This document shows, one piece after another, positions 11,664 through 48,704 of a stretch of 48,704 nucleotides of DNA (positions are counted from its first letter, which is position 1; every line of letters starts with the position of its first letter). This DNA is from a virus (lineage: Duplodnaviria > Caudoviricetes). The notes under the pieces were generated by a model, which searched no databases, was not told the DNA's origin, and saw only the letters and a program-made list of their open reading frames with translations. Location: positions 1 to 48,704 of the IMG/VR virus record IMGVR_UViG_3300010382_000021, one strand, 5' to 3'. The translations under genes were made by a program, and so were the position numbers.

Positions 11664-12140
11664 GTGGATAGAGTGCTATTAAGCACCGGGAAGGATGATT
11701 GGGAAACGCCGCAATGGCTGTTCAATGAACTCAATAAGGAATTTCACTTTACTCTTGATCCGTGCGCCACCTCCGAGAATGCGAAATGTAGTAAATTCTA
11801 CACCAAGGAGCAAGATGGGCTAAAGCAGGATTGGGGGGGCGAAACGGTGTTTTGCAATCCTCCGTACTCCAAGAAAACAAAGGGAAATCCCGGTCAAGAA
11901 GCGTGGATAAGGAAATGTTACGAAGAAGGCCGGAGAACAACTGTTGTAATGTTAATACCCGCAAGAACTGACACAATAGCTTTCCATAGGTATATTTACG
12001 GGAAGGCTGATATACGATTTTTAAAAGGCAGGGTAAAGTTTGTTGGAGGTAAGAGCGCTGCACCATTTCCAAGCATGGTAGTTATATTTAGTGGTGCAGC
12101 GCAGGGTTTTGAACAAATAGATATGTTTGGAGTGAGGTAG
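11664..12140 (+). CDS. Phage N6-adenine methyltransferase (T1 Dam-like family)
   Basis: WETPQ..F, FTLDPCA, FCNPPY, LIPARTDT. Confidence 0.92.
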   Translation: MDRVLLSTGKDDWETPQWLFNELNKEFHFTLDPCATSENAKCSKFYTKEQDGLKQDWGGETVFCNPPYSKKTKGNPGQEAWIRKCYEEGRRTTVVMLIPARTDTIAFHRYIYGKADIRFLKGRVKFVGGKSAAPFPSMVVIFSGAAQGFEQIDMFGVR

Positions 12141-12965
12141 ATGGCAGTAAGCACAGTGCTCAAATATCCCGGTTCGAAATGGAGTATAGCAGATTGGATA
12201 ATATCAAACTTCCCTCCAGGTTATGAGAAAATGACATACCTTGAGCCTTATATGGGATCGCTGGCAGTATTTTTCAACAAGAACAGAAGTGCTATTGAGA
12301 CGGTCAATGACCTGGATGGCAATGTCGTGAACCTATTTAGAGTGATACGAGACAACCCGGAGGAGCTGGCCCGACTGATAAAATTCACTCCCTGGGCACG
12401 GGAGGAATATAAAAATAGCTATGAGTCAACGGATGAACCGATAGAGAATGCCAGAAGGTTCCTTGCTCGAATGTGGATGGCTATAGGTGCAAAGTCCAGC
12501 GATATCACAGGCTTCAGAAATGTTATTAAGGGTGTAAACGGAAATATTCCGCACTGGAACAACAGGCTTCCGGGCCGGATACTCGAAGCAGCGGAGAGAT
12601 TAAAGCATACAGATACCTGCGTTGTACAGATCGAGAATCAACCGGCATTACAGTTAATTGAGCGATATAACCGTGAAAATGTCCTGATATACATTGACCC
12701 TCCCTACCTCCTTCGCACCAGGAGCAAACGGATATATAAGCATGAAATGAACGATAACGACCATTTGGAATTATTGGGAGTCCTTAAAGAATCCAAAGCA
12801 AAGATAGTACTCTCGGGATACGAAAACGATATGTACAGCAGCATCCTAGGGGGTTGGCATAAGGAAAGTAAGAGTTGCCTGAAGGAAGCTGGGTTAAGTG
12901 CCACAGAGGTACTTTGGATGAACTACGAACCACAAGGGCAAATAAGCATATTTGAGAGGATGTGA
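12141..12965 (+). CDS. D12-class DNA adenine methylase
   Basis: KYPGSK, YLEPYMGS, ETVNDLDG, YIDPPY. Confidence 0.92.
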   Translation: MAVSTVLKYPGSKWSIADWIISNFPPGYEKMTYLEPYMGSLAVFFNKNRSAIETVNDLDGNVVNLFRVIRDNPEELARLIKFTPWAREEYKNSYESTDEPIENARRFLARMWMAIGAKSSDITGFRNVIKGVNGNIPHWNNRLPGRILEAAERLKHTDTCVVQIENQPALQLIERYNRENVLIYIDPPYLLRTRSKRIYKHEMNDNDHLELLGVLKESKAKIVLSGYENDMYSSILGGWHKESKSCLKEAGLSATEVLWMNYEPQGQISIFERM

Positions 12966-31719: not shown

Positions 31720-34086
31720 ATGAGTCAAAAGTCTAACTTTATAGTTCGCGGCGGAGCAGACTTTAGCGGAATAAAAAAAGAAATGACCGTACTGCAAGGG
31801 CAATTTAAGGGCTTCCAAGCAATAATTTCGGGTGGGTTGCAATTAGCGGGGATTAGTTTAGGAATAGGCGCGCTGGTCAGCTTCGGAAGAAAGGCCATTG
31901 AAGTAGCATCAGATCTTGAGGAAGTGCAAAATGTGGTTGACGTCACATTTGGCTCTATGGCGAAGGACGTTAATGATTTTGCAGATACGGCCTTGAAGCA
32001 ATTTGGGTTGTCTCAGTTATCCGCTAAAAAATATACATCTACAATGGGTGCTATGTTGAAATCCTCCGGGCTAACGGGAGAAGCAATGAAAAGCATGGCT
32101 ATAGATCTGACTGAATTATCAGCGGATATGGCCTCTTTTTATAATCTGCAAAACGATGCGGCTTTTGAGAAGATACAAGCGGGTATAGCCGGAGAAACAA
32201 AGCCGCTGCGTGAACTAGGTATTAACATGACAGTTGCGAATCTGGAAGCATATGCATTATCTCAAGGGATCAGAGAGTCATGGTTAGAAATGACACAGGC
32301 GGAGCAGACCCTGCTAAGATACAATTATCTGCTATCCGTTACTGGGGATGCTCAGGGTGATTTTGCCAGGACATCAGGAAGCTGGGCGAATCAGGTAAAA
32401 CTCCTTAAAGAGCAATGGCAGGAATTTATGGGGCTGATGGGTAAGGCACTAGTAGAAATCCTTCTCCCCGTGGTAAGGTTTTTGAACGAAGCGCTAGAGG
32501 CCCTGATTGCTGTTACAAAGGAAATTGGCAAGATATATGTAATGATTACCGGAAAGCAGATTGAAATAAGCGACACAGCGGGTGATGCAGCTGATTCGGA
32601 GATCGATTTATCAGATGGTGTCGATAAAGCGGGAAAAGCGGCTAAAAAGGCATTAGCGCCATTTGATGAACTGAACTTATTACAGAGTTCTCTGGCCTCA
32701 GGAAGCGGAGGAGCATCGGGGTTGGATAATATTAAAACCAATATAGATACAAAGCAAATTACGGATGGGCTAACAAGCGGTTTTAAGGACGCTGAAGATG
32801 AGAGTGATAAGTTTTATTTGTGGTTTACGGATAGATGGAATAAATTAAAGCAAATGTTGGCGGTACCGCTATTTGTGCCCGCGCCCATTTTTGCAGCTAT
32901 TCCGAATCCCGTATATGACCCAAACTGGGGACTGGAACCGCCGCCTAAAGTAGAGAAACCAGTATTTCAGCCGATACCTAGTCCGATATACAACCCTAAT
33001 TGGAACTTAACTGTTCCAGCCGTATCTGCTCCGGTATTTCAGCCGATACCGAATCCCGTATATAGCCCAAACTGGGGACTGGAACCGCCTCCTGTCCCGG
33101 TCATAGAGATTCCGACCATAGATTATGTTGCGTATGGGCTATCCCTGGCAGCACTTGCGGTAAAGACGGCAGAGTCCTTTGAAGGTGTTAAAACTCACAT
33201 ATACGGATCGATGGAATCCGCAAGAGCAGCTGTTAACACAGGCTTAGAAACAATAAGAAGCAATTTTGAAACTCACAAGGAAAATGTCGGGCTGATAGCT
33301 GCTGCCGCATCTGCCGTACTGGTTGCGAATATAAAGCAGGGGCTATCTACTACGGGTACAAATGTAAATAACGCCATAAGTACCATTCAAAATAATTTAC
33401 AAATGTTTGGCAGGAATACCGGTAATATTGCAGCAGAAACGGCTAAAGCCTGGGCTAATAATTTAAGCGAAGGGTATAAGGCAGCATCACAAAACTTTTC
33501 AACCTTTGCAAATACAACCGGACAAAATTTAAAAGCTTTTGGAAGTGGATTTTTACAGGCTGCGGCAGAAACCGCCAGAGGATTTGTAAGTAATATGGTA
33601 AGCGGATTTAGCTCAGTATGGAATAATTTCAAAAATCTAATGAGCAGTATAGGTGAAGAAGTAAGTGGATGGTTCAGGGAAAACAAAAGCCTGGTGTTAA
33701 AAACGACTATAGCAGCCGGCGTAATAGTGGGGGCGGGGGCATTGGCATTAGCAGCACCCGCGATAATTCCATATGCAGGAGCGGCTTTAGGGGGGCTGGC
33801 GAGTATCCCGGCCCTTGCCGATGGCGGTATAACCAACGGTCCTATGCTCGCTATGGTAGGAGATAATCCCGGAGGCAGGGAGGTAATATCGCCTCTGGAT
33901 GATCTGAAGGAAATGATAGTATCTGCTGTAACGAGCGCCATGCAGCAATCCGGGAATAGCGGTGGCTCCGGTAGTGGATCAGGAGACTTGATACTGAAGA
34001 TAGGCGAAACTGAATTCGCGAGGATATCAATAAGCGCGATAAATGCAGAACAGCGACGTGCAGGCAGAACGCTGCTGATAGTATAG
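31720..34086 (+). CDS. Tape measure protein
   Basis: ASDLEEVQNVVDVTFG, ADMASFYN, QGDFARTS, LA.GG...GP..A.VGD. Confidence 0.93.
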   Translation: MSQKSNFIVRGGADFSGIKKEMTVLQGQFKGFQAIISGGLQLAGISLGIGALVSFGRKAIEVASDLEEVQNVVDVTFGSMAKDVNDFADTALKQFGLSQLSAKKYTSTMGAMLKSSGLTGEAMKSMAIDLTELSADMASFYNLQNDAAFEKIQAGIAGETKPLRELGINMTVANLEAYALSQGIRESWLEMTQAEQTLLRYNYLLSVTGDAQGDFARTSGSWANQVKLLKEQWQEFMGLMGKALVEILLPVVRFLNEALEALIAVTKEIGKIYVMITGKQIEISDTAGDAADSEIDLSDGVDKAGKAAKKALAPFDELNLLQSSLASGSGGASGLDNIKTNIDTKQITDGLTSGFKDAEDESDKFYLWFTDRWNKLKQMLAVPLFVPAPIFAAIPNPVYDPNWGLEPPPKVEKPVFQPIPSPIYNPNWNLTVPAVSAPVFQPIPNPVYSPNWGLEPPPVPVIEIPTIDYVAYGLSLAALAVKTAESFEGVKTHIYGSMESARAAVNTGLETIRSNFETHKENVGLIAAAASAVLVANIKQGLSTTGTNVNNAISTIQNNLQMFGRNTGNIAAETAKAWANNLSEGYKAASQNFSTFANTTGQNLKAFGSGFLQAAAETARGFVSNMVSGFSSVWNNFKNLMSSIGEEVSGWFRENKSLVLKTTIAAGVIVGAGALALAAPAIIPYAGAALGGLASIPALADGGITNGPMLAMVGDNPGGREVISPLDDLKEMIVSAVTSAMQQSGNSGGSGSGSGDLILKIGETEFARISISAINAEQRRAGRTLLIV

Positions 34087-40224: not shown

Positions 40225-40824
40225 ATGATCAACAGCAGGAAATTAGAGGACCTGCATCCGGTGGTCCGGGAACTTTGCAACAGGCATATTGCTGCCTGCA
40301 AAGCCCGGGGAGCCACCATCCAGGTGACAAACACCCTCCGGGATGCTGAGTACCAGGCATACTTATATGCCCAGGGGAGGACCAGGGCCGGCAGTATAGT
40401 AACAAACATGCAGCACATAGGTCCGCACGGCTTTGGCCTGGCATATGACGTTGTACCTGTGGTTAATGGCAATGCAGTATGGGGCGATAACAAATTGTGG
40501 GCCGTTGCCGGCGAAGAGGGAAAGAAACTGGGGCTCACCTGGGGAGGAGACTGGAAAAGCATTGTTGACAAGCCGCACTTTGAATATACTGGGAGCCTGA
40601 CAGCGGCGCAACTCCGGGCAGGTCAGCGGCCGAGCTGGTGGGAGGTGAAGCAGTTGGACTGGAAGGAGATACTATACAAAGTAGCAAGCAATCCGGAAGA
40701 GTGGGAGAATGCAATTAATGTTGCTGTAGCAGCTGCAAAAGCAGATGGAAACCTGGGAGCGCTGGAGATATTCAAGTTCCTTCCGGAGCTGATAGAGAAA
40801 GTGCATAATAATGCCAAAGAATGA
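40225..40824 (+). CDS. Endolysin, M15-family (L-Ala-D-Glu) peptidase
   Basis: R....Q..LYAQGRT, H.FGLAYD, WGGDW, D.PHFE. Confidence 0.92.
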   Translation: MINSRKLEDLHPVVRELCNRHIAACKARGATIQVTNTLRDAEYQAYLYAQGRTRAGSIVTNMQHIGPHGFGLAYDVVPVVNGNAVWGDNKLWAVAGEEGKKLGLTWGGDWKSIVDKPHFEYTGSLTAAQLRAGQRPSWWEVKQLDWKEILYKVASNPEEWENAINVAVAAAKADGNLGALEIFKFLPELIEKVHNNAKE

Positions 40825-40859
40825 GAAAGCTGCAAATAAAGATGAATATGGAGGCATGT

Positions 40860-41225
40860 ATGAGAAAGTGTTTAATATTCGTTTTGGCCTTGTTCCTTAT
40901 ATTTACGGCGGGCTGCGGAAACAACAGCAAGCCAGCAATGCCGGCCAGCGCTGAGGACATCGACGGTCCCCAGGAGGAATATACCGTCAACATCGATACA
41001 GTAAAGCAGGGAGAGATAACATATAAAAAGCTGGTAATCCACAACCATACTGAATATGCCGATACCGAAGAGAGCATTATGGAACAGAGCAAGGAGCTTT
41101 TGCATGAAGTATCCGGAAAGTATGATCCTGGTGGATACGGAGAGACAAGTATAATTTTTTATAAGGGGAAAGGCATGTACTGCGTTGTGGATGCGGGTAG
41201 TATGGAAATAAGTTATGTTGAATGA
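40860..41225 (+). CDS. Putative lipoprotein
   Basis: Signal peptide with TAGC lipobox. Confidence 0.75.
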   Translation: MRKCLIFVLALFLIFTAGCGNNSKPAMPASAEDIDGPQEEYTVNIDTVKQGEITYKKLVIHNHTEYADTEESIMEQSKELLHEVSGKYDPGGYGETSIIFYKGKGMYCVVDAGSMEISYVE

Positions 41226-41226
41226 T

Positions 41227-41262
41227 GGAGGTAGCCTTTGGCTGCCTCCTTTTTTATTTTTT
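41227..41262 (+). terminator. Rho-independent terminator ending the late operon
   Basis: GGAGGTAGC-cttt-GGCTGCCTCC followed by a T-tract. Confidence 0.85.
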
Positions 41263-41296: not shown

Positions 41297-41325
41297 TTGC
41301 AAATGATATACATATGTAGTACAAT
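41297..41325 (+). promoter_or_regulatory. sigmaA promoter of the accessory operon
   Basis: TTGCAA-17 nt-TACAAT, overlapped by the palindrome TGTAGTACA. Confidence 0.7.
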
Positions 41326-41358
41326 AAGATTAAGGATAAGATGAAAGGGGATAAAAAA

Positions 41359-41562
41359 ATGACACTCAGAGATTTGTCAGAAAACATGGAGATAGTAGCT
41401 GATATAGTAATCAAAAAATGGAATTATAAAGAAGAAAAATACATCATCCTTGCAGAGACTGGCGAGGAAATAGTTGCTAAAGGGTTACTTGATGCGGACA
41501 TCAAAAGTCTTATCACAGCAACGCATCCAACACACGGAAGTGTCTTAATAGTCGAAATATAA
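41359..41562 (+). CDS. Hypothetical protein
   Basis: AAAGGGG SD. Confidence 0.65.
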   Translation: MTLRDLSENMEIVADIVIKKWNYKEEKYIILAETGEEIVAKGLLDADIKSLITATHPTHGSVLIVEI

Positions 41563-41576
41563 GGGGGGAGAGTAAT

Positions 41577-41750
41577 ATGAAAAGATTATATTGTCAATAT
41601 TGCGGACGGTTGCTGTCAGAGGGTTGTGATTGCTTAAGAGAAGCGGCAGAAGCCGAGAAGGAGTTTATAGAAGATTACGAAAACAGCCCAGAGACGCTTT
41701 ACGGATGGGCACAGCAAGATTTGATAGACCTGCGAAATTTTGAAAGATAA
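41577..41750 (+). CDS. Small Cys-motif protein (57 aa)
   Basis: GGGGGAG SD; YCQYCG...CDC. Confidence 0.65.
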   Translation: MKRLYCQYCGRLLSEGCDCLREAAEAEKEFIEDYENSPETLYGWAQQDLIDLRNFER

Positions 41751-41819
41751 CCCGCCTGACGATGGCCTGCTGGGTACAGGCCGAAACAATGATCCGGCAC
41801 ATTGCCGGGGAGTCGCGGG
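41751..41819 (+). ncRNA. Hammerhead ribozyme, type I (variant with extra U after A9)
   Basis: Stem I CCCGC/GCGGG; CUGACGA; stem II GGCCUG/CAGGCC; GAAAC; GUC cleavage triplet at 41812-41814. Confidence 0.8.
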
Positions 41820-41895
41820 AACCCGCCACGAGGGAGAAATGCATAGCTCCCCTTCATATAGATTGTTCCTTGATAAGTTGATGGAGGTTGATAAA

Positions 41896-43032
41896 ATGGC
41901 ATGGTATTATGGGACTTTTTCATGCGGTCATGAAGGCCGTGTAAATATAGTAGGACCCACAAAAAATAGACAATGGATAGCAGACAAAAAGTTCTCCGGC
42001 CTATGCGAAGAATGCTATGAAAAGAAGCTTGCCGAAGATAGAGAAAGAGAGAACGCCGCTGCAGCCGAGAAGGCAAAGGAAATGGAACTTCCGGAGCTCA
42101 AAGGAAGTGAGAAACAAGTAGCCTGGGCAAATACTTTGAGGCAGAAGTTAATCGATAATGTAGAGGAAATATTAGAAGACATAGAAGAAAGAAAAGGCAA
42201 TAGAGACTTAGCGAATTCTATATTTGATTATATTTTGACCAACAAAACAGAAGCAAAATGGTATATCGATAACCGTGTTTGCTTCGGAAATCATAAAATG
42301 CTAGAAATATTATTCGACGATATACACAAAGAAATGCCGACAGAAGAAAAGATTAGGGAAGAAAAGGCTATTGCCGAAATAAATGCTGAAGCCACAGTAT
42401 ATCCGGAAAACTGTAGGACAAATGCAACCGTTGAAATTAGAATATTGGATGGTAAAGTTGCTGCCATATTTGAAAAAGACGATAGATTCATGAGGATTGT
42501 GAAAGAACTTAATTATAGTTGGAGCGGTCAAGCATGGGAAAGAAGGATTGGGCTTACAACCGGATCTGCTGTGGATCGTGCTGCCGAATTAGGTAATAAG
42601 CTCCTTAATGCCGGATTCCCAATAATACTAATTGATAATGAAGCCAGGGAGAAGGCTATTAATGGTACTTACGAACCTCAATGCAAACGTTGGATAGCAA
42701 AAAGAACAAAGGGAGAATATGCCGGATGGTTTTCTATTGGGTGGACAGATGGAAGTGATTTATACGATATGGCAAGGAGGCTTCCAGGCTCAAGATACGA
42801 TAGGCCGAATGTAATGGTAAAACCGGAACATTATGAAGAAGTTGAGGATTTTGCGAATATGTATGGCTTCAGATTAAGCCCCGGAACTGTGGAATTAATC
42901 GAATCTGCAAAAGCTGCCAAAGATGCAGCATTGAAGGTTAACCCGGCGAAGGTTGTTGATCCAGAAGCAAAAGATGGATTAAAAGAAATATTGAACTCAG
43001 GAAGTGATATCCTTGATGACCTTAAAGACTGA
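41896..43032 (+). CDS. Conserved hypothetical protein (Zn-binding N-terminus)
   Basis: SCGH...LCEECY; LPEL.GSEKQVAWA..LR; GGAGGT SD. Confidence 0.8.
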   Translation: MAWYYGTFSCGHEGRVNIVGPTKNRQWIADKKFSGLCEECYEKKLAEDRERENAAAAEKAKEMELPELKGSEKQVAWANTLRQKLIDNVEEILEDIEERKGNRDLANSIFDYILTNKTEAKWYIDNRVCFGNHKMLEILFDDIHKEMPTEEKIREEKAIAEINAEATVYPENCRTNATVEIRILDGKVAAIFEKDDRFMRIVKELNYSWSGQAWERRIGLTTGSAVDRAAELGNKLLNAGFPIILIDNEAREKAINGTYEPQCKRWIAKRTKGEYAGWFSIGWTDGSDLYDMARRLPGSRYDRPNVMVKPEHYEEVEDFANMYGFRLSPGTVELIESAKAAKDAALKVNPAKVVDPEAKDGLKEILNSGSDILDDLKD

Positions 43033-44428
43033 ACTTAAGCCCCACCAGGTACCTGCTGTTGAAAAGCTTATCCATATAAAAGTCGGTGCTCTCTATATGG
43101 AGCAGGGTACCGGCAAGACAAGAACCGCATTGGACCTTATCGCACAGCGGATAAATTCCGGGAAAGTAGATAAAGTACTATGGCTATGTCCTTGTTCTGT
43201 GTTTGAAACTGGTAACATTCAGGATGAGTTGATAAAGCATTTGCAATCCGGTATTGAGCTTGTTGAAATACATGGCATAGAAAGTCTATCGAGCAGCATC
43301 AAGCTTAACCTTAAGTTGCTGGACATGGTGCAGAACAACAGAGTATTTTTAGTAGTAGACGAAAGTAATCTTGTCAAAAATCACAAAAGGCTTAGAACAA
43401 TGAATATAAGACGATTGGCTGAACATTGCCAGTACAAATTGATTCTCAACGGTACCCCTATAACAAAATGTGAAAAGGACTTGTTTGCACAGTGGTATAT
43501 CCTGGATTGGCGAATATTGGGGTATCAGTCTTTCTGGAGCTTCGCGGCCAATCATCTGGAATATGATGAGAGGATCCCAGGAAAGATTAACCGGGTTTTG
43601 AATGTAGATTATCTCACCCGAAAAATAGCCCCATATACATATCAGGTTTTAAAGAAGGATTGTCTGAAACTGCCTAAGAAGATTTATAAGACCTGCTATG
43701 TAGACCTTTATGACTGGCAGCGGAACGAATATGAGCGTGTAAAATATGCTTTTCTGGCGGACATTGACGAACTTAAGCCTTATACGATATATCGGCTTTT
43801 TACAGCATTGCAGCATGTTGTAAGCGGGCATAGAATTATATCGGATGTGGATAGTCCTATGCAGACAGAATCAATATTTGGAGATCCTGAAGATAATCCG
43901 AGAATAAAAAGACTGCTGAAGCTATTGGATTCAGAAATAGAAGAGGAAAAAGCTATTATTTGGTGTAAATTTACACACGAGATAAAAACTATAGCTGAAA
44001 TCCTTAGAAAACATTATGGCGCAGAGGCAGTAGAACTATACGGTAAAGTGAGTAAGAAGAAGAGAAAAGAAATAATTAGCCTGTTCAAGGGGAAGGCACA
44101 ATATTGCGTAGCGAATAAAATATGTGGAGGTTATGGATTGAATCTTCAATTTTGCCGAAATGAAATTTATTATACGAACGATTATGATTACGCTACACGG
44201 GCACAGTCAGAAGACCGTTTGCATCGGATAGGCCAGGAAGATGATGTATATATTTATGATATATGCGCACGCCAGACTATAGACGAAAGAATTTTAAAAT
44301 GCCTATGGAAGAAAGAAAGACTGATTGACGGTTTTAGATATGCAATTGATTGTGAAAAGGATAAAGTAGCTTTAGGGAGGTGGGTAGACGGTGCCGAAGA
44401 TATACAACCCGAACAAGAATGTATATAG
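43016..44428 (+). CDS. SNF2/SF2-family helicase/ATPase
   Basis: EQGTGKT, VDES, NGTP, GYGLNLQ, QSEDRLHRIGQ. Confidence 0.9.
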   Translation: MTLKTELKPHQVPAVEKLIHIKVGALYMEQGTGKTRTALDLIAQRINSGKVDKVLWLCPCSVFETGNIQDELIKHLQSGIELVEIHGIESLSSSIKLNLKLLDMVQNNRVFLVVDESNLVKNHKRLRTMNIRRLAEHCQYKLILNGTPITKCEKDLFAQWYILDWRILGYQSFWSFAANHLEYDERIPGKINRVLNVDYLTRKIAPYTYQVLKKDCLKLPKKIYKTCYVDLYDWQRNEYERVKYAFLADIDELKPYTIYRLFTALQHVVSGHRIISDVDSPMQTESIFGDPEDNPRIKRLLKLLDSEIEEEKAIIWCKFTHEIKTIAEILRKHYGAEAVELYGKVSKKKRKEIISLFKGKAQYCVANKICGGYGLNLQFCRNEIYYTNDYDYATRAQSEDRLHRIGQEDDVYIYDICARQTIDERILKCLWKKERLIDGFRYAIDCEKDKVALGRWVDGAEDIQPEQECI

Positions 44429-45644
44429 TGCCGCTGTAGAACGTGTAGACTGGATATTGGACAATTTTCCGGCCTATTATGTCAGCTTCAGCGGGGGGAA
44501 GGACAGCGGCGTTACTCTTAATTTGGTGTTGGAACGCGCCAGGCTGAAAAATAAGTTGCCGGTTCCAGTGATGTTCTTCGATTGGGAAACCTGCTATAAG
44601 GAAACCATAGACTTTGTTGCAAGAATAATGCTCCGGGATGATGTAGAGCCATATTGGATATGTCTTCCGGAATGCGAAGATAACGGTTCAAGCATATATG
44701 AACGGTATTGGAAACCATGGGATCCCGCCAAGAGAGATAAGTGGATCCGCCCCATGCCCACATATCCTTTCGTTATAAACCAAGACAATATGCCGGAAGA
44801 ATGGAAAGCCTGGTACGATGGAAACTCATACACCTTATGGATTGTAAAGAAGTTCGGTGACTGGCTGGCAGATAAAAAAGGCGTAGATTCCATTGCTGAT
44901 ATATTGGGGCTCCGGACGGATGAAAGCTATGGCCGACATATGCTGGTTCAGGCACAGAAGAACAGAAAGAAAATGCGGAAATGGGTTTACCAGACTGCCG
45001 ACAACGGCAATAAGTCATGGATATGTCTTCCCATATATGATTGGGAAGTCTCAGATATATGGACGGCCAATGCCCAGTTCGGATGGGATTATAACAAGAC
45101 CTATGACAGATTCTACCGGGCCGGCAAGCCGCTACATGAAATGCGTATCTGTAATGCCTTTGGAGAAGTACAGAAAAACGATCTCTTCCAGTGGCAGGAG
45201 ATAGAACCGGAAACCTGGGATAAGCTTGTAGAACGTGTTGAAGGGGCTAATTTTGGAGCTATCTATAACGGAAGCAATTTGAATATTGGTAAGCTCAAGA
45301 AGCCGGCCAGCTGCACATGGGAAGAATATACTCAATTGTTGTTGAACAGTCTTCCTCCTGAGGCAAAGGCAAATTACGAATACCGGTTCGGCGTGATAAA
45401 AAGATGGTTTGAAATATATTCCGGAGAGAAGCTTAGCCTGAAGCAATGGTGGTTTGATACCAGGAAGGAAGCGAAACAAGCATCAAAGGATTTGGGTGTC
45501 AGTATTGCCTATGTGGGTTCCTGGGAGACCATGGCCGGTTTTATAATAAAAGGGGACTGGATGTGCAAGAAATATGGCTTCAAGGAATCTGAGCGTACTG
45601 ACAAGGCTATTAATGCCTTGTTTGAAAAATATAAGGATTTATAG
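44391..45644 (+). CDS. PAPS-reductase-fold protein, IbrA/YbdN (DUF3440) type
   Basis: SFSGGKDS PP-loop, W..WDP....W.R..P, GLRTDES, PIYDW...DIW, YN..YD, MRIC, RVEGANF. Confidence 0.9.
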   Translation: MPKIYNPNKNVYSAAVERVDWILDNFPAYYVSFSGGKDSGVTLNLVLERARLKNKLPVPVMFFDWETCYKETIDFVARIMLRDDVEPYWICLPECEDNGSSIYERYWKPWDPAKRDKWIRPMPTYPFVINQDNMPEEWKAWYDGNSYTLWIVKKFGDWLADKKGVDSIADILGLRTDESYGRHMLVQAQKNRKKMRKWVYQTADNGNKSWICLPIYDWEVSDIWTANAQFGWDYNKTYDRFYRAGKPLHEMRICNAFGEVQKNDLFQWQEIEPETWDKLVERVEGANFGAIYNGSNLNIGKLKKPASCTWEEYTQLLLNSLPPEAKANYEYRFGVIKRWFEIYSGEKLSLKQWWFDTRKEAKQASKDLGVSIAYVGSWETMAGFIIKGDWMCKKYGFKESERTDKAINALFEKYKDL

Positions 45645-45655
45645 GAGGTAGTACA

Positions 45656-46105
45656 ATGGAAATCAAGGTTTTTACCAAGGACATGCAGGGACATGATTTT
45701 TATGGATATCTAGGCCCCTATTTTGCAGATAGGAGCATTATGGAGGAAATGACGCTTCCACTGTATAATGAGCCTGGAGGCACATGGTTTGTCGGCTTTG
45801 ACGGAGAGAAAATAGCCGGCTTCTGCTGTCTATTTGAAAACAAGAGAAGTGCCAAGAACCTCAAAGGAGACGGTTATATATATTTTGATAATTTTTACAT
45901 CCCTCCGGAGTATAGGGGAAATGGCTACAGCAAGGAATTGTTTGAATATCGTCAGAAGCACACCGAACAGAATTATAAAGGATGGATCATTGAAGCAATG
46001 TCACGGGATCCACGGCAAATCAAGAATTATGAAAAATCCGGATTTATCGTAACGGGGAAACGCGGGAGCTATAAATTGTTCAGAAAGGAGATACAAAATG
46101 AGTGA
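45656..46105 (+). CDS. GNAT-family acetyltransferase
   Basis: FYIPPEYRGNGYS (motif A); YEKSGF. Confidence 0.85.
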   Translation: MEIKVFTKDMQGHDFYGYLGPYFADRSIMEEMTLPLYNEPGGTWFVGFDGEKIAGFCCLFENKRSAKNLKGDGYIYFDNFYIPPEYRGNGYSKELFEYRQKHTEQNYKGWIIEAMSRDPRQIKNYEKSGFIVTGKRGSYKLFRKEIQNE

Positions 46106-46715
46106 ATTTGAAGGACTAGTTGACTTGATAAAGATACAGCTCTCAGCAATGCCTGAAGAAGAGCGCATACAGGCCATTAACCAAATTAAAAAAGATATTG
46201 ATGAAATGAATCCTATCCAGCAGCCCGTGAGTATAGTAAAATGGGTACCCTCAGACATGGTTGTTGCAAATGATTATAATCCTAACCATGTAGCTCCGCC
46301 CGAAATGAGGCTGTTGTATAGGAGTATCAAGGAAGACGGCTATACACAGCCGATTGTAACTGTATGGGATGAGCAGCTCGGAAAATTTGTTGTTGTTGAC
46401 GGATTCCATCGCAACAGGGTTGGTAAGGAATATAAGGATATAAATAAAACTGTCAAAAATCATCTTCCTATAGTAGAACTAGAAAAATCCATGAATGAGC
46501 GTATGGCAAGCACAATAAGACATAATAGGGCCAGGGGAAAACATGGGATAGACGGTATGACTGATGTAGTGGCTGAAATGCTTTTGCAGGGCTGGGATGA
46601 TACAAGGGTCGCGCAGGAACTTGGAATGGATCTCGATGAATTTTTAAGGCTTAAGCAAAATACCGGTATTGCTGAATTGTTTAAAAACAGAGAATTTTCC
46701 CATTCATGGGAATAA
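46098..46715 (+). CDS. IbrB/YbdM-type ParB/Srx-domain protein
   Basis: ANDYNPN.VAPPEM.LL..SI.EDGYTQPIV, VVDGFHR, STIRHNRARG.H. Confidence 0.92.
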   Translation: MSEFEGLVDLIKIQLSAMPEEERIQAINQIKKDIDEMNPIQQPVSIVKWVPSDMVVANDYNPNHVAPPEMRLLYRSIKEDGYTQPIVTVWDEQLGKFVVVDGFHRNRVGKEYKDINKTVKNHLPIVELEKSMNERMASTIRHNRARGKHGIDGMTDVVAEMLLQGWDDTRVAQELGMDLDEFLRLKQNTGIAELFKNREFSHSWE

Positions 46716-46727
46716 TGGAGGAGAATT

Positions 46728-47261
46728 ATGTTTGGTAAAGTGGAAGTAGGGAAACTGTACCAAGAAGGCATAAATAAATACCAGGAAGAATCAAAATTCG
46801 ATTTCACAAACTCAGGGGCTGAGCTCTATCTTATGTTTGATAGGCCTGCCAAAACTGAAATAGAGAATATAAAAAGAGGTAATATAGAATTAGCTGTTTA
46901 TCCAGCAGATGAAGTATTATTCATGCTTTTTAAGTTTGGTAGCTTGAATTGGATCGATGTGCCCTACTCGGTGCATTTATCTAAAGATTTAGAACTGCAG
47001 GAGGTGGAGGAGGGGAAGGGTTATGCATTGCATGTTACCCTGATTGATGCAAGTACCGGCATAGTTGAAGTACTTAGATTGATTGGTCTTTCTACAAAGT
47101 TTTCAATACAACTGCGTAAACTGATAATGTCACAAAAAGAAAAACCATTTGATATAAAAGCTTATAACAATAAAATAAACCATATATATAATAATTACTC
47201 AACAAAGGACCTGGTTAGCAGAACCATACTAAATTATAGGCATAAAGGTGGGGAAGAGTAA
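46728..47261 (+). CDS. Hypothetical protein
   Basis: GGAGGAG SD; 177 aa. Confidence 0.75.
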   Translation: MFGKVEVGKLYQEGINKYQEESKFDFTNSGAELYLMFDRPAKTEIENIKRGNIELAVYPADEVLFMLFKFGSLNWIDVPYSVHLSKDLELQEVEEGKGYALHVTLIDASTGIVEVLRLIGLSTKFSIQLRKLIMSQKEKPFDIKAYNNKINHIYNNYSTKDLVSRTILNYRHKGGEE

Positions 47262-47262
47262 G

Positions 47263-47418
47263 ATGGCAATTAAATCTGAGATTATACCGTTGCGTGTATC
47301 TCCGCTGCTTAAAGATAAAATTGAAAGGGCAGCTGGTGATGCACAGGAAAATACGGCAGAATATATCCGGAAGGCTGTAGAACAAAGATTGGAAAGGGAA
47401 ACGAAGAAGTCTGAATAA
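47263..47418 (+). CDS. Ribbon-helix-helix regulator (51 aa)
   Basis: IIPLRVSPLLKDKIERAA......AEYIRKAVEQRL. Confidence 0.7.
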   Translation: MAIKSEIIPLRVSPLLKDKIERAAGDAQENTAEYIRKAVEQRLERETKKSE

Positions 47419-47432
47419 GGCTTCTTTTTTTT
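47404..47432 (+). terminator. Rho-independent terminator of the accessory operon
   Basis: AAGAAGTCT-gaata-AGGCTTCTT followed by a T-tract. Confidence 0.7.
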
Positions 47433-47695
47433 GTGGAATTTGCTCTGTTTAGGTATTAAGTCCTACAAGGAGGTCATAGGACATTTTGCATAGACCTGGG
47501 TATTATACCTTACATTTACATAATTATCCCATTAAAATTTCATTTCACACCGAATATTATTATGCATTCCATTGTCAATTACAGTCAACCATTTGGCATA
47601 AAGCCGTTCCCATAGCATTCGCAATTATAACATAGGTGACAAACGCATCCTCTCGGTACTTATGGACAAAATAACGAAAATAAGTATCAGGTGGG

Positions 47696-48049
47696 ATGGG
47701 CGTGAAGCAAGAGCTTACAAAATCAGAATATATCCATATAGGTCGCGTTGAGTATTACAAAACTACCGACCTAATAACCTATGCCGGCATACAGCGCCGG
47801 GTAACGCTACAAGTATGTGTAATGGATGGTAAGTACACATATGTTATGCCTATCTATGCCCAGGGAATGAAAATACGCGCCGTAAGAAAGGCTGGAGCAC
47901 AGATAGTAAAATTAAGCCTTGAGGAGAACAAAGGATGGAGCCATGAAGATTACATATATATAAAGCCACCAAAAGAATATGAAGCTGGAGAAGGGCCTAT
48001 AGCTTATATGGCAGACTATATACAAGGTATACTTAACCTTATGGAATAA
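47696..48049 (+). CDS. Hypothetical protein
   Basis: 117-aa ORF, AGGTGG SD. Confidence 0.6.
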   Translation: MGVKQELTKSEYIHIGRVEYYKTTDLITYAGIQRRVTLQVCVMDGKYTYVMPIYAQGMKIRAVRKAGAQIVKLSLEENKGWSHEDYIYIKPPKEYEAGEGPIAYMADYIQGILNLME

Positions 48050-48249
48050 TATTACAAAATTAATCCCAATTAATCCCAAAAAGGCACTTTAGGTATCGAA
48101 AATTACCGTTCATCAAAATCCATTGAAAATACAGAAAATTAAAAATATAATGGGAATATAACGCAAATCGACAAATTATGACAAAAAAATGCAGCTCGGA
48201 ATGGGACATGCATGTGACGGAAATACAAGTAATATTTTTCTCCAGGGTA

Positions 48250-48278
48250 TTTTCAAGCGAACATATGTTTGGTATAAT
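48250..48278 (+). promoter_or_regulatory. Promoter with LexA (Cheo) box
   Basis: CGAACATATGTTTG (48258-48271) between TTTTCA and TG-G-TATAAT. Confidence 0.7.
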
Positions 48279-48340
48279 ATTCCCATGAATAAAAAGTTCC
48301 AATGGAAATATTTCCTGTAAGGATATGAAGGAGGTATATT

Positions 48341-48490
48341 ATGGAACCCGACATAATAGAGAAAGGAAGCCACATTGTCTACCCAGGACACGACTTCCTT
48401 TCTTTGTCAGCCCCTCCAAAAGGAGGAAGACAACTAATTCTACCTTATTCGTTGTACATATGCAATAGAAAACTTTCGACAAATATATAA
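48341..48490 (+). CDS. Small ORF (49 aa) downstream of the LexA-box promoter
   Basis: AAGGAGGT SD. Confidence 0.45.
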   Translation: MEPDIIEKGSHIVYPGHDFLSLSAPPKGGRQLILPYSLYICNRKLSTNI

Positions 48491-48509
48491 TAGATACGGA
48501 GGAGAATAT

Positions 48510-48704
48510 ATGTATAGCCAAAAATCAAGCATAAAAGATTTTATGAAAAAAAACGGGGTTAATATCGATGCGCTTTCGAAGAAAACAAATATATCAAAAT
48601 ATGAGCTATTCCTTTTACTTTACTGTCCTTTCCTGAAGCTTAAATTATCGCATTTTGTGCTTATTAGTAGAGGCTTAAATATACATATTTCAGATTTACT
48701 ATGA
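48510..48704 (+). CDS. XRE-like HTH protein
   Basis: GGAGGAG SD; LSKKTNISK...ISRGLNIHISDLL. Confidence 0.7.
   Translation: MYSQKSSIKDFMKKNGVNIDALSKKTNISKYELFLLLYCPFLKLKLSHFVLISRGLNIHISDLL

Follow-up and report, generated by a model that had tools for sequence, protein, structure and literature searches.

A conserved IbrA–IbrB cassette in a temperate phage, with relatives in counter-defence operons

The DNA analysed here (the window, all 48,704 nucleotides of the caudoviricete record IMGVR_UViG_3300010382_000021) carries, downstream of the lysis module of a temperate phage, an operon of nine tightly coupled plus-strand genes. The operon is real and not unique to this phage, and relatives of the cassette sit in counter-defence operons, an association that is new here. 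In the reading that we prefer, with a probability of roughly 40%, this conserved phage cassette serves counter-defence: IbrA would attach a covalent mark to phage DNA, probably through sulfur chemistry that depends on cysteines. Hundreds of phages, plasmids and chromosomes carry IbrA and IbrB, and the Escherichia coli K-12 copy is repressed; placement in anti-CRISPR operons, together with a predicted DNA-binding partner of 378 residues, turns their role into a specific question that can be tested in harmless cultured phages. A confirmed phage-made DNA mark would be a further counter-defence chemistry, would mean that many annotations of these genes as sulfur metabolism need correction, and would be relevant to phage resistance in dairy starters.

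Operon layout and local additions

All nine open reading frames were found on the plus strand, to which all coordinates below refer, in the order given by a first-pass annotation, with intergenic distances of 14, 145, −20, −38, 11, −8, 12 and −14 nt; its domain assignments were likewise upheld by profile matches, and the motifs that it listed (GKT, DES, SGGKDS and DGFHR) are present in the translations. Its view of the operon as a bounded unit also stands. A terminator-like hairpin with a 10-pair stem and a T run (41227..41256, hairpin at 41227–41249) would end the lysis-side transcript, a sigma70/sigmaA-type promoter candidate (41297..41325, 9/12 consensus positions) follows, and a hairpin scan placed a second terminator-like hairpin at the operon 3′ end (47403..47435, hairpin at 47403–47427). 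Both scans are weak on their own, returning 10 terminators against 6.9 ± 2.5 and 37 promoters against 23.8 ± 4.6 in shuffled sequence. The promoter spacer contains a 10-nt palindrome (41309–41318; expected 0.09 times per 95 nt), a possible operator for the ribbon-helix-helix (RHH) protein encoded at the end of the operon. Read depth in the sole RNA run was even across the structural genes and the cassette, so that its reads represent DNA and are uninformative on expression. No terminal direct repeat of at least 12 nt was found between the two window ends.

The operon opens with two small open reading frames of 73 codons (41341..41562, whose translation may in fact start at a later ATG) and 57 codons (41577..41750, with two Cys pairs); neither was assigned a family in profile searches, and no relatives of either occur in 187 IbrA loci. 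They are followed by a type I hammerhead ribozyme motif (41751..41825), identified by a descriptor match comprising the CUGANGA and GAAA core, three stems and an NUH cleavage site, here GUC, with one extra U ahead of stem II and a pseudoknot between loop II and the 3′ tail. This copy has an interrupted stem III, and its self-cleavage is only predicted. It is the sole descriptor match in the window (1 against 0.025 per shuffled window) and one member of a large family in phages, of whose 128 copies 117 have the cleavage-side arm, which was not part of the search; the motif is thus well supported, though an Rfam search gave no hammerhead match. A tie between hammerhead and cassette was rejected, since the descriptor matched in none of 187 IbrA-type loci and SNF2, IbrA or GNAT genes were found in none of 82 hammerhead loci. 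One of these 82 loci carries an N-terminal 378-aa-like gene, and three have weak ParB matches. The hammerhead, the two small open reading frames and the RHH gene are local additions to the cassette.

The IbrA–IbrB core and its partners

IbrA (44391..45644) combines an SGGKDS PP-loop domain of the PAPS-reductase fold with DUF3440 (E-values 9e-11 and 3.9e-23, both exceeding the Pfam cut-off). Structure comparison bore out the proposed PP-loop assignment, with matches to FAD synthase (Z 14.9) and APS reductase (Z 13.5); Cap9-CdnD also matched (Z 7.4). Only two cysteines are conserved, C91 in 112/114 and C392 in 108/114 sequences; no third one suited to an Fe-S cluster is conserved, C254 occurring in only 42/114. 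In a subclade adjoining that of the window, C392 is replaced by Phe, which accounts for about 12 rows of an alignment of 32 and for 3/114 of the larger one. The window's protein falls within a deep 12-member clade (support 1.0) and is 32% identical to an E. coli phage IbrA; matches to IbrA extend over 222 phage and 724 plasmid records. The function of IbrA/IbrB has been given as unknown (PMC4541368), and no biochemical study of IbrA/IbrB, DUF3440 or ybdN/ybdM was among the matches listed for the part of the open literature covered.

IbrB (46098..46715) consists of a ParB/Srx-type domain and a C-terminal HTH-like segment. Its ParB_N match (E 0.002) is below the cut-off, while phrog_2159 (E 1e-67) confirms the family, in which the NPN and DGFHR motifs are conserved. 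Co-conservation as a unit, another element of the initial proposal, was evident: ibrB accompanies ibrA in 109/113 non-redundant loci, and members of the 378-aa family are followed by SNF2-IbrA-IbrB in 18/18. The compact SNF2-family ATPase (43013..44428) has a match to SNF2/Helicase_C above the Pfam cut-off and retains Walker A, Walker B, motif III and motif VI. However, this motor is not essential to the IbrA–IbrB pair, because 42/113 loci, many of them on chromosomes or plasmids without phage context, have none of the SNF2, GNAT and cupin genes nearby, and because the ATPase motifs are lost in a gut alphaproteobacterial clade.

The GNAT (45656..46105), whose acetyl-CoA loop is intact here, scores above the Pfam cut-off with generic GNATs as best matches, and belongs to a family that is dedicated to ibrA. 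Its location between ibrA and ibrB had been regarded as unusual, yet such genes recur in 24/113 loci, on either side of ibrA, and a Bacteroides-type GNAT lies immediately 5′ of ibrA in 14/14 cases. With the gene absent from 89/113 loci and the acetyl-CoA loop lost in 10/24 aligned GNATs, it is a dedicated but optional partner, so the adenylation-then-acylation path suggested earlier is unlikely as an obligatory one. In one aquatic-phage clade the GNAT is replaced by an ectoine-synthase-like cupin (Ectoine_synth, E 5e-40), which hints at small-molecule chemistry; the two share a slot and never occur together (0/113), and 73/113 loci have neither. Another recurring but optional member is the 177-aa protein (46728..47261, phrog_12389), for which no usable Atlas match was obtained. 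The operon ends with the RHH-like small regulator (47248..47418; RHH/NikA E 0.002–0.05, below cut-off), in whose slot relatives carry Aca1, AbrB-like or HTH genes.

A predicted motor partner and counter-defence context

The domain make-up of the 378-aa protein (41896..43032) is new here and, from sequence and a predicted model, suggests a DNA-binding partner of the motor. It comprises a Zn finger (C10, H12, C37, C40), an AcrIE7/AcrIF23-like helical domain at about residues 66–147, and two XPB-DRD/UvsW-N-like domains at about residues 176–248 and 263–332. Profile searches matched AcrIF23 (E 2.9e-6) and AcrIE7 (E 0.27–0.42), and the model aligned with both at Z 5.0–5.1, with the XPB DRD at Z 5.7 (rmsd 2.0 over 55) and with the UvsW N-domain at Z 5.2 (rmsd 2.3 over 61), values in the range that the structure tool calls common. 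Foldseek gave no match for this model at E ≤ 0.001, and Pfam scans matched none of 19 family members. AcrIE7 blocks Cas3 by covering R-loop single-stranded DNA, which it binds through K6 and R49 (PMC12002350); these residues align to K73 and R127 of the 378-aa protein, each kept in 17/18 domain-bearing rows, while the Cas2/3-binding loop of AcrIF23 (residues 17–28) falls outside the matched region.

Anti-CRISPR genes are found close to several relatives of the cassette. In phage D4276, acrIIA5 lies two genes upstream of SNF2-ibrA-ibrB, as it does in six near-identical streptococcal loci; aca1 closes the cassette in 3 loci, and in another (L042) ibrA-GNAT-ibrB lies within a type IV-B cas operon, these neighbours representing few lineages and carrying no background rate. 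A specific tie of aca1 to ibrAB was rejected, as 0/5 further aca1 loci carry ibrAB. AcrIIA5 together with PAPS and ParB gave no match in the open literature covered. Additionally, a type I-B-like host CRISPR spacer from the same sample matches this phage. Searches of 74 neighbour genes with PHROG and Pfam named no further Acr, and the same libraries also missed AcrIIA5; Cas models matched none of ten cassette-region proteins, and the csf1/csf2/csf3/cas11 set of type IV-B systems is not among these. PADLOC returned a generic helicase and weak DndC scores only. Of the anti-restriction or anti-phage role first put forward, the counter-defence half is favoured by context, whereas no context points to anti-phage defence.

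Proposed mechanism, alternatives and known systems

Under the DNA-mark reading, the promoter would fire early and the terminal RHH protein would repress it later, in the manner of Aca proteins in acr operons. The 378-aa protein would hold on to DNA that is single-stranded or branched; together with the SNF2 ATPase, whose gene overlaps its own, it would make up a two-part motor for opening the DNA or tracking along it. IbrA would adenylate its target with ATP at the PP-loop and then resolve the intermediate with a nucleophile, most likely sulfur on C91/C392. As the first-pass annotation noted, the cassette has no gene for a cysteine desulfurase, and profile searches found none; the sulfur would come from a host desulfurase. 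The resulting mark, which may be a thio-base or resemble a phosphorothioate, would make the DNA resistant to host nucleases. IbrB would bind DNA and nucleotide as an obligatory partner or regulator, as ParB-like DndB does with DndC, and the GNAT and the 177-aa protein would tune the system and be dispensable.

The DNA-directed parts of the cassette, namely the intact SNF2 ATPase, the ParB and HTH segments and the 378-aa domain matches, support this reading, as do the co-conservation of its genes, the acr, aca, cas and spacer context, and the PP-loop fold and conserved cysteines of IbrA; the reading is weakened by the score of IbrA against the DndC model (26 bits, cut-off 290), by the Phe-bearing subclade, by the presence of only two conserved cysteines, by the many loci without the motor and by the small number of lineages with acr, aca or cas neighbours. 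All four known phosphorothioate systems employ a PAPS-reductase-domain protein, and, counting against our reading, LC-MS found phosphorothioate absent from gut isolates without dnd, ssp or brx, which may or may not carry ibrAB (PMC12914056). In line with sulfur chemistry, though as a correlation only, deletion of citR in E. coli derepresses ybdN/ybdM and the cys regulon rises as well (PMC9068703, Table 1). A more doubtful extension is that IbrA–IbrB, with an SNF2 motor split over two genes, give phages rather than hosts a fifth pathway to sulfur-modified DNA, which would protect phage genomes from restriction and CRISPR nucleases and would lie within well-known acr operons, the acrIIA5 locus of D4276 among them.

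Equally doubtful is counter-defence without a DNA mark, in which the 378-aa protein shields single-stranded DNA, the SNF2 ATPase rewinds R-loops or repairs cut forks, and IbrA–IbrB act on a host-defence protein or nucleotide. The two predicted junction-binding-type domains together with SNF2 would resemble annealing motors such as SMARCAL1; the retained ssDNA-covering residues of AcrIE7, the Cap9-CdnD match, given that proteins can be PP-loop enzyme substrates, and the type I-B-like spacer also fit. However, the 378-aa gene is present in only 11/113 loci by automatic count, IbrB is of a ParB/HTH DNA-binding type and, in a weak test, none of 642 long candidates was a fused 378-aa/SNF2 protein.

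Less probable is the role that the name IbrAB suggests, in which the cassette would co-activate prophage genes at the transcriptional level or relieve their silencing. IbrA/IbrB of the E. coli ECOR-9 island reportedly activate eib, GenBank notes label them 'co-activator of prophage gene expression', and the SNF2 and HTH domains suit chromatin or promoter remodelling. Deletion of citR in E. coli changes the expression of many genes (PMC9068703, Table 1). Yet this leaves the invariant PP-loop active site and the cysteines unexplained, virulent phages carry the cassette too (D4276 is called virulent), and activation could be a by-product of a DNA mark.

Just as improbable is a reading in which the GNAT or the cupin provides or modifies an amine that IbrA would then ligate to a base, a nucleotide or a metabolite; adenylation followed by acylation would be one form of it. 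Both folds occur in the ectoine pathway; the mutually exclusive use of one slot by GNAT and cupin, the strong Ectoine_synth match and weak matches of IbrB to SbnI and to SerK, a serine kinase (E 0.009–0.05), agree with such chemistry, but the many loci with neither gene, the GNATs without an acetyl-CoA loop and the conserved cysteines do not. Slightly less probable still, the cassette could be a prophage-encoded defence that guards the lysogen against phages: it occupies a moron position with its own promoter and terminator candidates, Zorya, DISARM and BREX include SNF2 helicases (generic matches), and it is kept on chromosomes and plasmids, although it has no nuclease or toxin-like effector, PADLOC found no specific match for IbrB, the GNAT or the family-less proteins, and acr/aca neighbours and virulent carriers speak against it. 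An auxiliary metabolic role in sulfate assimilation as a true PAPS reductase, as many annotations and the PHROG category 'moron, auxiliary metabolic gene' have it, is very improbable despite the fold match, given CysH scores of 26–30 bits against cut-offs of 154–254, a PP-loop of the ATP-pyrophosphatase type that is intact, the close linkage with ParB and SNF2 genes, and no cys genes among the recurring neighbours.

Several known systems share parts of this arrangement. Dnd, Ssp, Tdp and BREX type 4 also place a PAPS-reductase-domain PP-loop enzyme beside an NTPase, the two criteria of PMC12914056, and DndB is a ParB-family partner (PMC10853773), as IbrB is here; however, the NTPase here is SNF2 rather than DndD, SspC or BrxC, the cassette is phage-carried and lacks a desulfurase, DndE, SspB and a restriction module, and PADLOC models of DndD/E, SspB/C and BrxC gave no match in it. 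By sequence, it is not a Dnd/Ssp member. The type IV-B CysH-like protein, proposed to AMPylate nucleic acid (PMC8175902), resembles IbrA in its SGGxDS PP-loop PAPS-reductase fold and its location on mobile elements, and co-occurs with ibrA-GNAT-ibrB in L042, but Cas-CysH has about 250 residues without DUF3440 and the catalytic cysteine, and the cassette has no cas gene. As in SMARCAL1/UvsW/XPB-type motors, two DRD/UvsW-N-like domains directly precede an SF2 ATPase, here split over two overlapping genes and without a Pfam HARP match in the 378-aa protein; the pair may be SMARCAL1-like. The cassette recalls acr-aca operons in its strong-looking candidate promoter, which contains a palindrome, in its small first genes and in the putative small regulator at its end; related cassettes carry true acrIIA5 or aca1 genes, and the AcrIE7/AcrIF23-like helical domain is here embedded in a larger multidomain protein. 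By contrast, the cassette is enzyme-rich, its regulator is RHH-like, not Aca1, and its anti-CRISPR role is predicted. Finally, PAPS_reduct plus DUF3440 and an adjacent IbrB-family gene make the window's pair a member of the IbrA/IbrB (YbdN/YbdM) family, with the same DUF3440 and ParB-like domains in the same order as E. coli ECOR-9 IbrA/IbrB and K-12 YbdN/YbdM, whereas in this phage a GNAT splits the pair, and SNF2, the 378-aa and 177-aa proteins and RHH are added.

Setting of the cassette and the hammerhead motif

The 48.7-kb window corresponds to one virus record, whose sequence was contained in one sequencing run only, a sediment metagenome. Its gene layout is that of a temperate tailed phage, with an integrase-like gene at the left end, replication genes, then terminase to tail genes and a holin (labels mostly from reading the translations), and with an M15 endolysin (40225-40824) among the lysis genes, directly 3' of which the cassette begins. 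Window translations and gap lengths upheld the nine ORFs that the first-pass annotation had described, all on the + strand (operon 41297-47435), in the proposed order and with the proposed tight spacing, and family model searches agreed with the domains assigned to their products. The promoter and terminator matches said to bound this unit are present, but their statistical strength is weak. A lipoprotein-like ORF (40821-41225) lies 5' of the cassette, and a gene for an uncharacterised 117-aa protein and an HTH gene (47696-48704) lie 3' of it, at the right end of the window, where GC is lower (0.35). Elsewhere, two adjacent DNA adenine methyltransferase-like genes (11664-12965) were assigned by motif, and the phage therefore has further anti-restriction candidates besides the cassette. 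A host spacer matches 36 nt of the tape-measure-like gene (32281-32316) and carries CRISPR-repeat-like sequence on both flanks in same-sample contigs; the matched stretch is immediately preceded by TCA, which we take to be a type I-B-like PAM.

The proposed hammerhead ribozyme (41751-41825, + strand), between the second small ORF and the 378-aa gene, had no Rfam match in the window, yet the motif is supported by a descriptor search (one match in the window versus 0.025 per shuffle) and by a viral family. A pattern for its 5' half matched 135 viral loci, with about 430 stretches estimated, and the cleavage-side arm, which was not part of the pattern, is present in 117 of 128 distinct copies. 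Pairing between loop II and the 3' tail occurs in 48 of 84 distinct pairs, compared to 22.6 with shuffled tails, and the window copy resembles published pseudoknotted bacterial hammerheads. The family is common in phage contigs (L188-L322), often as 2-5 copies between small genes, and showed no link to ibrAB in the other loci examined.

Conservation across IbrA loci

The 187 IbrA-type loci gathered for comparison lean to window-like IbrA, because two large scans contributed only their best 80 of 496 and best 80 of 585; the 183 sequences of at least 370 aa (window included) were collapsed below 85% identity to 114. Co-conservation of the cassette genes, as predicted, was confirmed: ibrB is in the operon at 109 of the 113 non-window loci, and of the remaining four, three are contig ends and one (L038) has ibrB 600 nt further on. 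Automatic counts, which overlook a few loci where gaps are long or genes overlap, placed SNF2 at most two genes upstream of ibrA in 41/113 loci, an ectoine-synthase-like cupin near it in 16/113 and the 378-aa gene in 11/113; hand-corrected labels gave SNF2 in 46, GNAT in 27, the cupin in 17 and the 378-aa gene in 16 of 114. Searches from the other genes agree. SNF2-IbrA-IbrB follows the 378-aa gene in 18/18 loci, 8 of which also have GNAT; among the 18, 8 contigs are shared with the first set and several more are near-duplicates. Bacteroides-type GNAT lies directly 5' of ibrA in 14/14.

An adenylation-then-acylation pathway had been proposed for the cassette. As a fixed path this is unlikely: by the automatic count a GNAT lies within two genes of ibrA in only 24/113 loci (12 of them downstream), and a gene missing from most loci cannot supply an obligatory step of the catalysis. 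The cassette GNATs nonetheless form a dedicated family, whose N-terminal motif is conserved; the acetyl-CoA loop is lost in 10 of 24 aligned members and kept in the window copy.

GNAT and cupin occur together in none of the 113 loci. The cupin-type loci form one clade (support 1.0), and the 378-aa/SNF2/GNAT set is spread over several deep clades of the IbrA tree, a scatter that would suit an ancient complete cassette from which members were lost repeatedly. A separate clade, made up of L034, L047, L056 and 14 more loci from aquatic phages, has ibrA, cupin (free or as a fusion with IbrB), ibrB and a conserved, uncharacterised protein of about 140 aa. In another variant (L342, 2491-8165), SNF2 and ibrA are separated by a 291-aa gene, and a DPPW methyltransferase-like gene lies downstream.

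Component proteins

A 19-member profile of the 378-aa protein matches AcrIF23 (E 2.9e-6) and, weakly, four AcrIE7 chains (E 0.27-0.42). In the structure model (pLDDT 87, pTM 0.57), residues 66-147 match AcrIE7 (Z 5.1) and AcrIF23 (Z 5.0), residues 176-248 archaeal XPB damage-recognition domains (Z 5.7, 5.1) and residues 263-332 the T4 UvsW N-domain (Z 5.2); because unrelated folds score similarly, the weight of these matches rests on their agreement with the sequence match and with weak Foldseek XPB rows. The ssDNA-binding residues K6 and R49 of AcrIE7 (PMC12002350) correspond by chain numbering to the K of GSEKQ and the R of IDNR, K73 and R127, each of them retained by 17 of the 18 alignment rows with this domain, and the Cas2/3-binding loop of AcrIF23 (PMC9270243) falls outside the matched region. 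We infer that the 378-aa protein may be the half of a two-gene motor that grips DNA. Among 73 SNF2s examined, the canonical ATPase motifs are intact in those found with the 378-aa gene; motif VI is a variant in the shorter streptococcal forms, and Walker A has been lost from the alphaproteobacterial ones.

The IbrA model (pLDDT 87.5) best matches FAD synthase, APS/PAPS reductase and CysD (Z 12-15), followed by tRNA thiolases, TilS and NAD/GMP synthetases; curated model cut-offs rule out CysH and DndC. Two cysteines, C91 and C392, are conserved, position 392 being Phe in one subclade and both being absent from one phage (L006). In MnmA and ThiI, both PP-loop enzymes, sulfur is transferred by a pair of cysteines. 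In an E. coli citR deletion, ybdN and ybdM, the K-12 counterparts of ibrA and ibrB, rise by log2 5.5 and 2.5, and the same table lists eleven sulfur-assimilation or uptake genes up by log2 1.7-3.2 (PMC9068703), cys gene names being otherwise confined to one mention in the introduction. For sulfur use by IbrA this correlation is only a hint, as flagellar genes also rise (PMC9068703). IbrB combines a ParB/Noc-like domain with an HTH-like C-terminus and has weaker matches to SbnI and SerK; published descriptions either assign IbrAB no function or call them prophage regulators (PMC4541368, PMC8813620).

Counter-defence context and known systems

In virulent phage D4276, in which AcrIIA5 was discovered (PMC6060171), the annotation runs from acrIIA5 through a small gene, an SNF2-sized gene, PAPS reductase and ParB to an HTH-like gene, all touching, an arrangement repeated in six near-identical streptococcal loci. 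Cultured phages with the cassette include, besides D4276 of S. thermophilus, CHPC1148 of the same host species, C. scindens phiCs5676-1 and L. helveticus phiAQ113. An Aca1 homolog (E 2.7e-19) is the last cassette gene in L012, L028 and L078, the last with the gene order of the window and Aca1 replacing RHH; HTH or AbrB-like genes end the cassette in other relatives. In L042 (5760-11649), ibrA-GNAT-ibrB sits inside a type IV-B cas operon, between a cas11-csf2 fusion and cysH-like, csf3 and csf1 genes, with a RadC-like gene 5' of it. These acr, aca and type IV-B contexts amount to about four lineages, counted without a background rate. At the other aca1 loci examined, ibrAB was not found, and bare ibrAB pairs occur among unrelated genes on plasmids, for example on a virulence-type Klebsiella plasmid (L324, 5965-7826), where the pair is flanked by the iron-uptake genes fec and iro.

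Two further neighbourhoods were observed. Directly before SNF2-ibrA-ibrB in L076, a 123-aa gene (198-569) matches the Cas8c/Csd1 C-terminus (E 2.4e-10), and its product is possibly a Cascade decoy. In Fusobacterium phage phiFN37 (L010, 5998-13054), ibrA-ibrB-helicase adjoins a second ParB gene, a queuine tRNA-ribosyltransferase and a queuosine precursor transporter, a cluster of apparent deazaguanine DNA-modification type.

The cassette is a real, widespread and unsolved module, of which the window, judged by sequence, appears to hold a complete version with catalytic motifs intact. The single reading that fits best is counter-defence through marking of DNA, at a probability of 0.4, and we incline towards counter-defence of some kind. 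The cassette resembles phosphorothioation systems in its PP-loop enzyme, NTPase and ParB partner (PMC10853773, PMC12839542, PMC12914056), but orthology and partner genes place it outside them. For the CysH of type IV-B systems, AMPylation of nucleic acids has been proposed (PMC8175902; PMC10848311).
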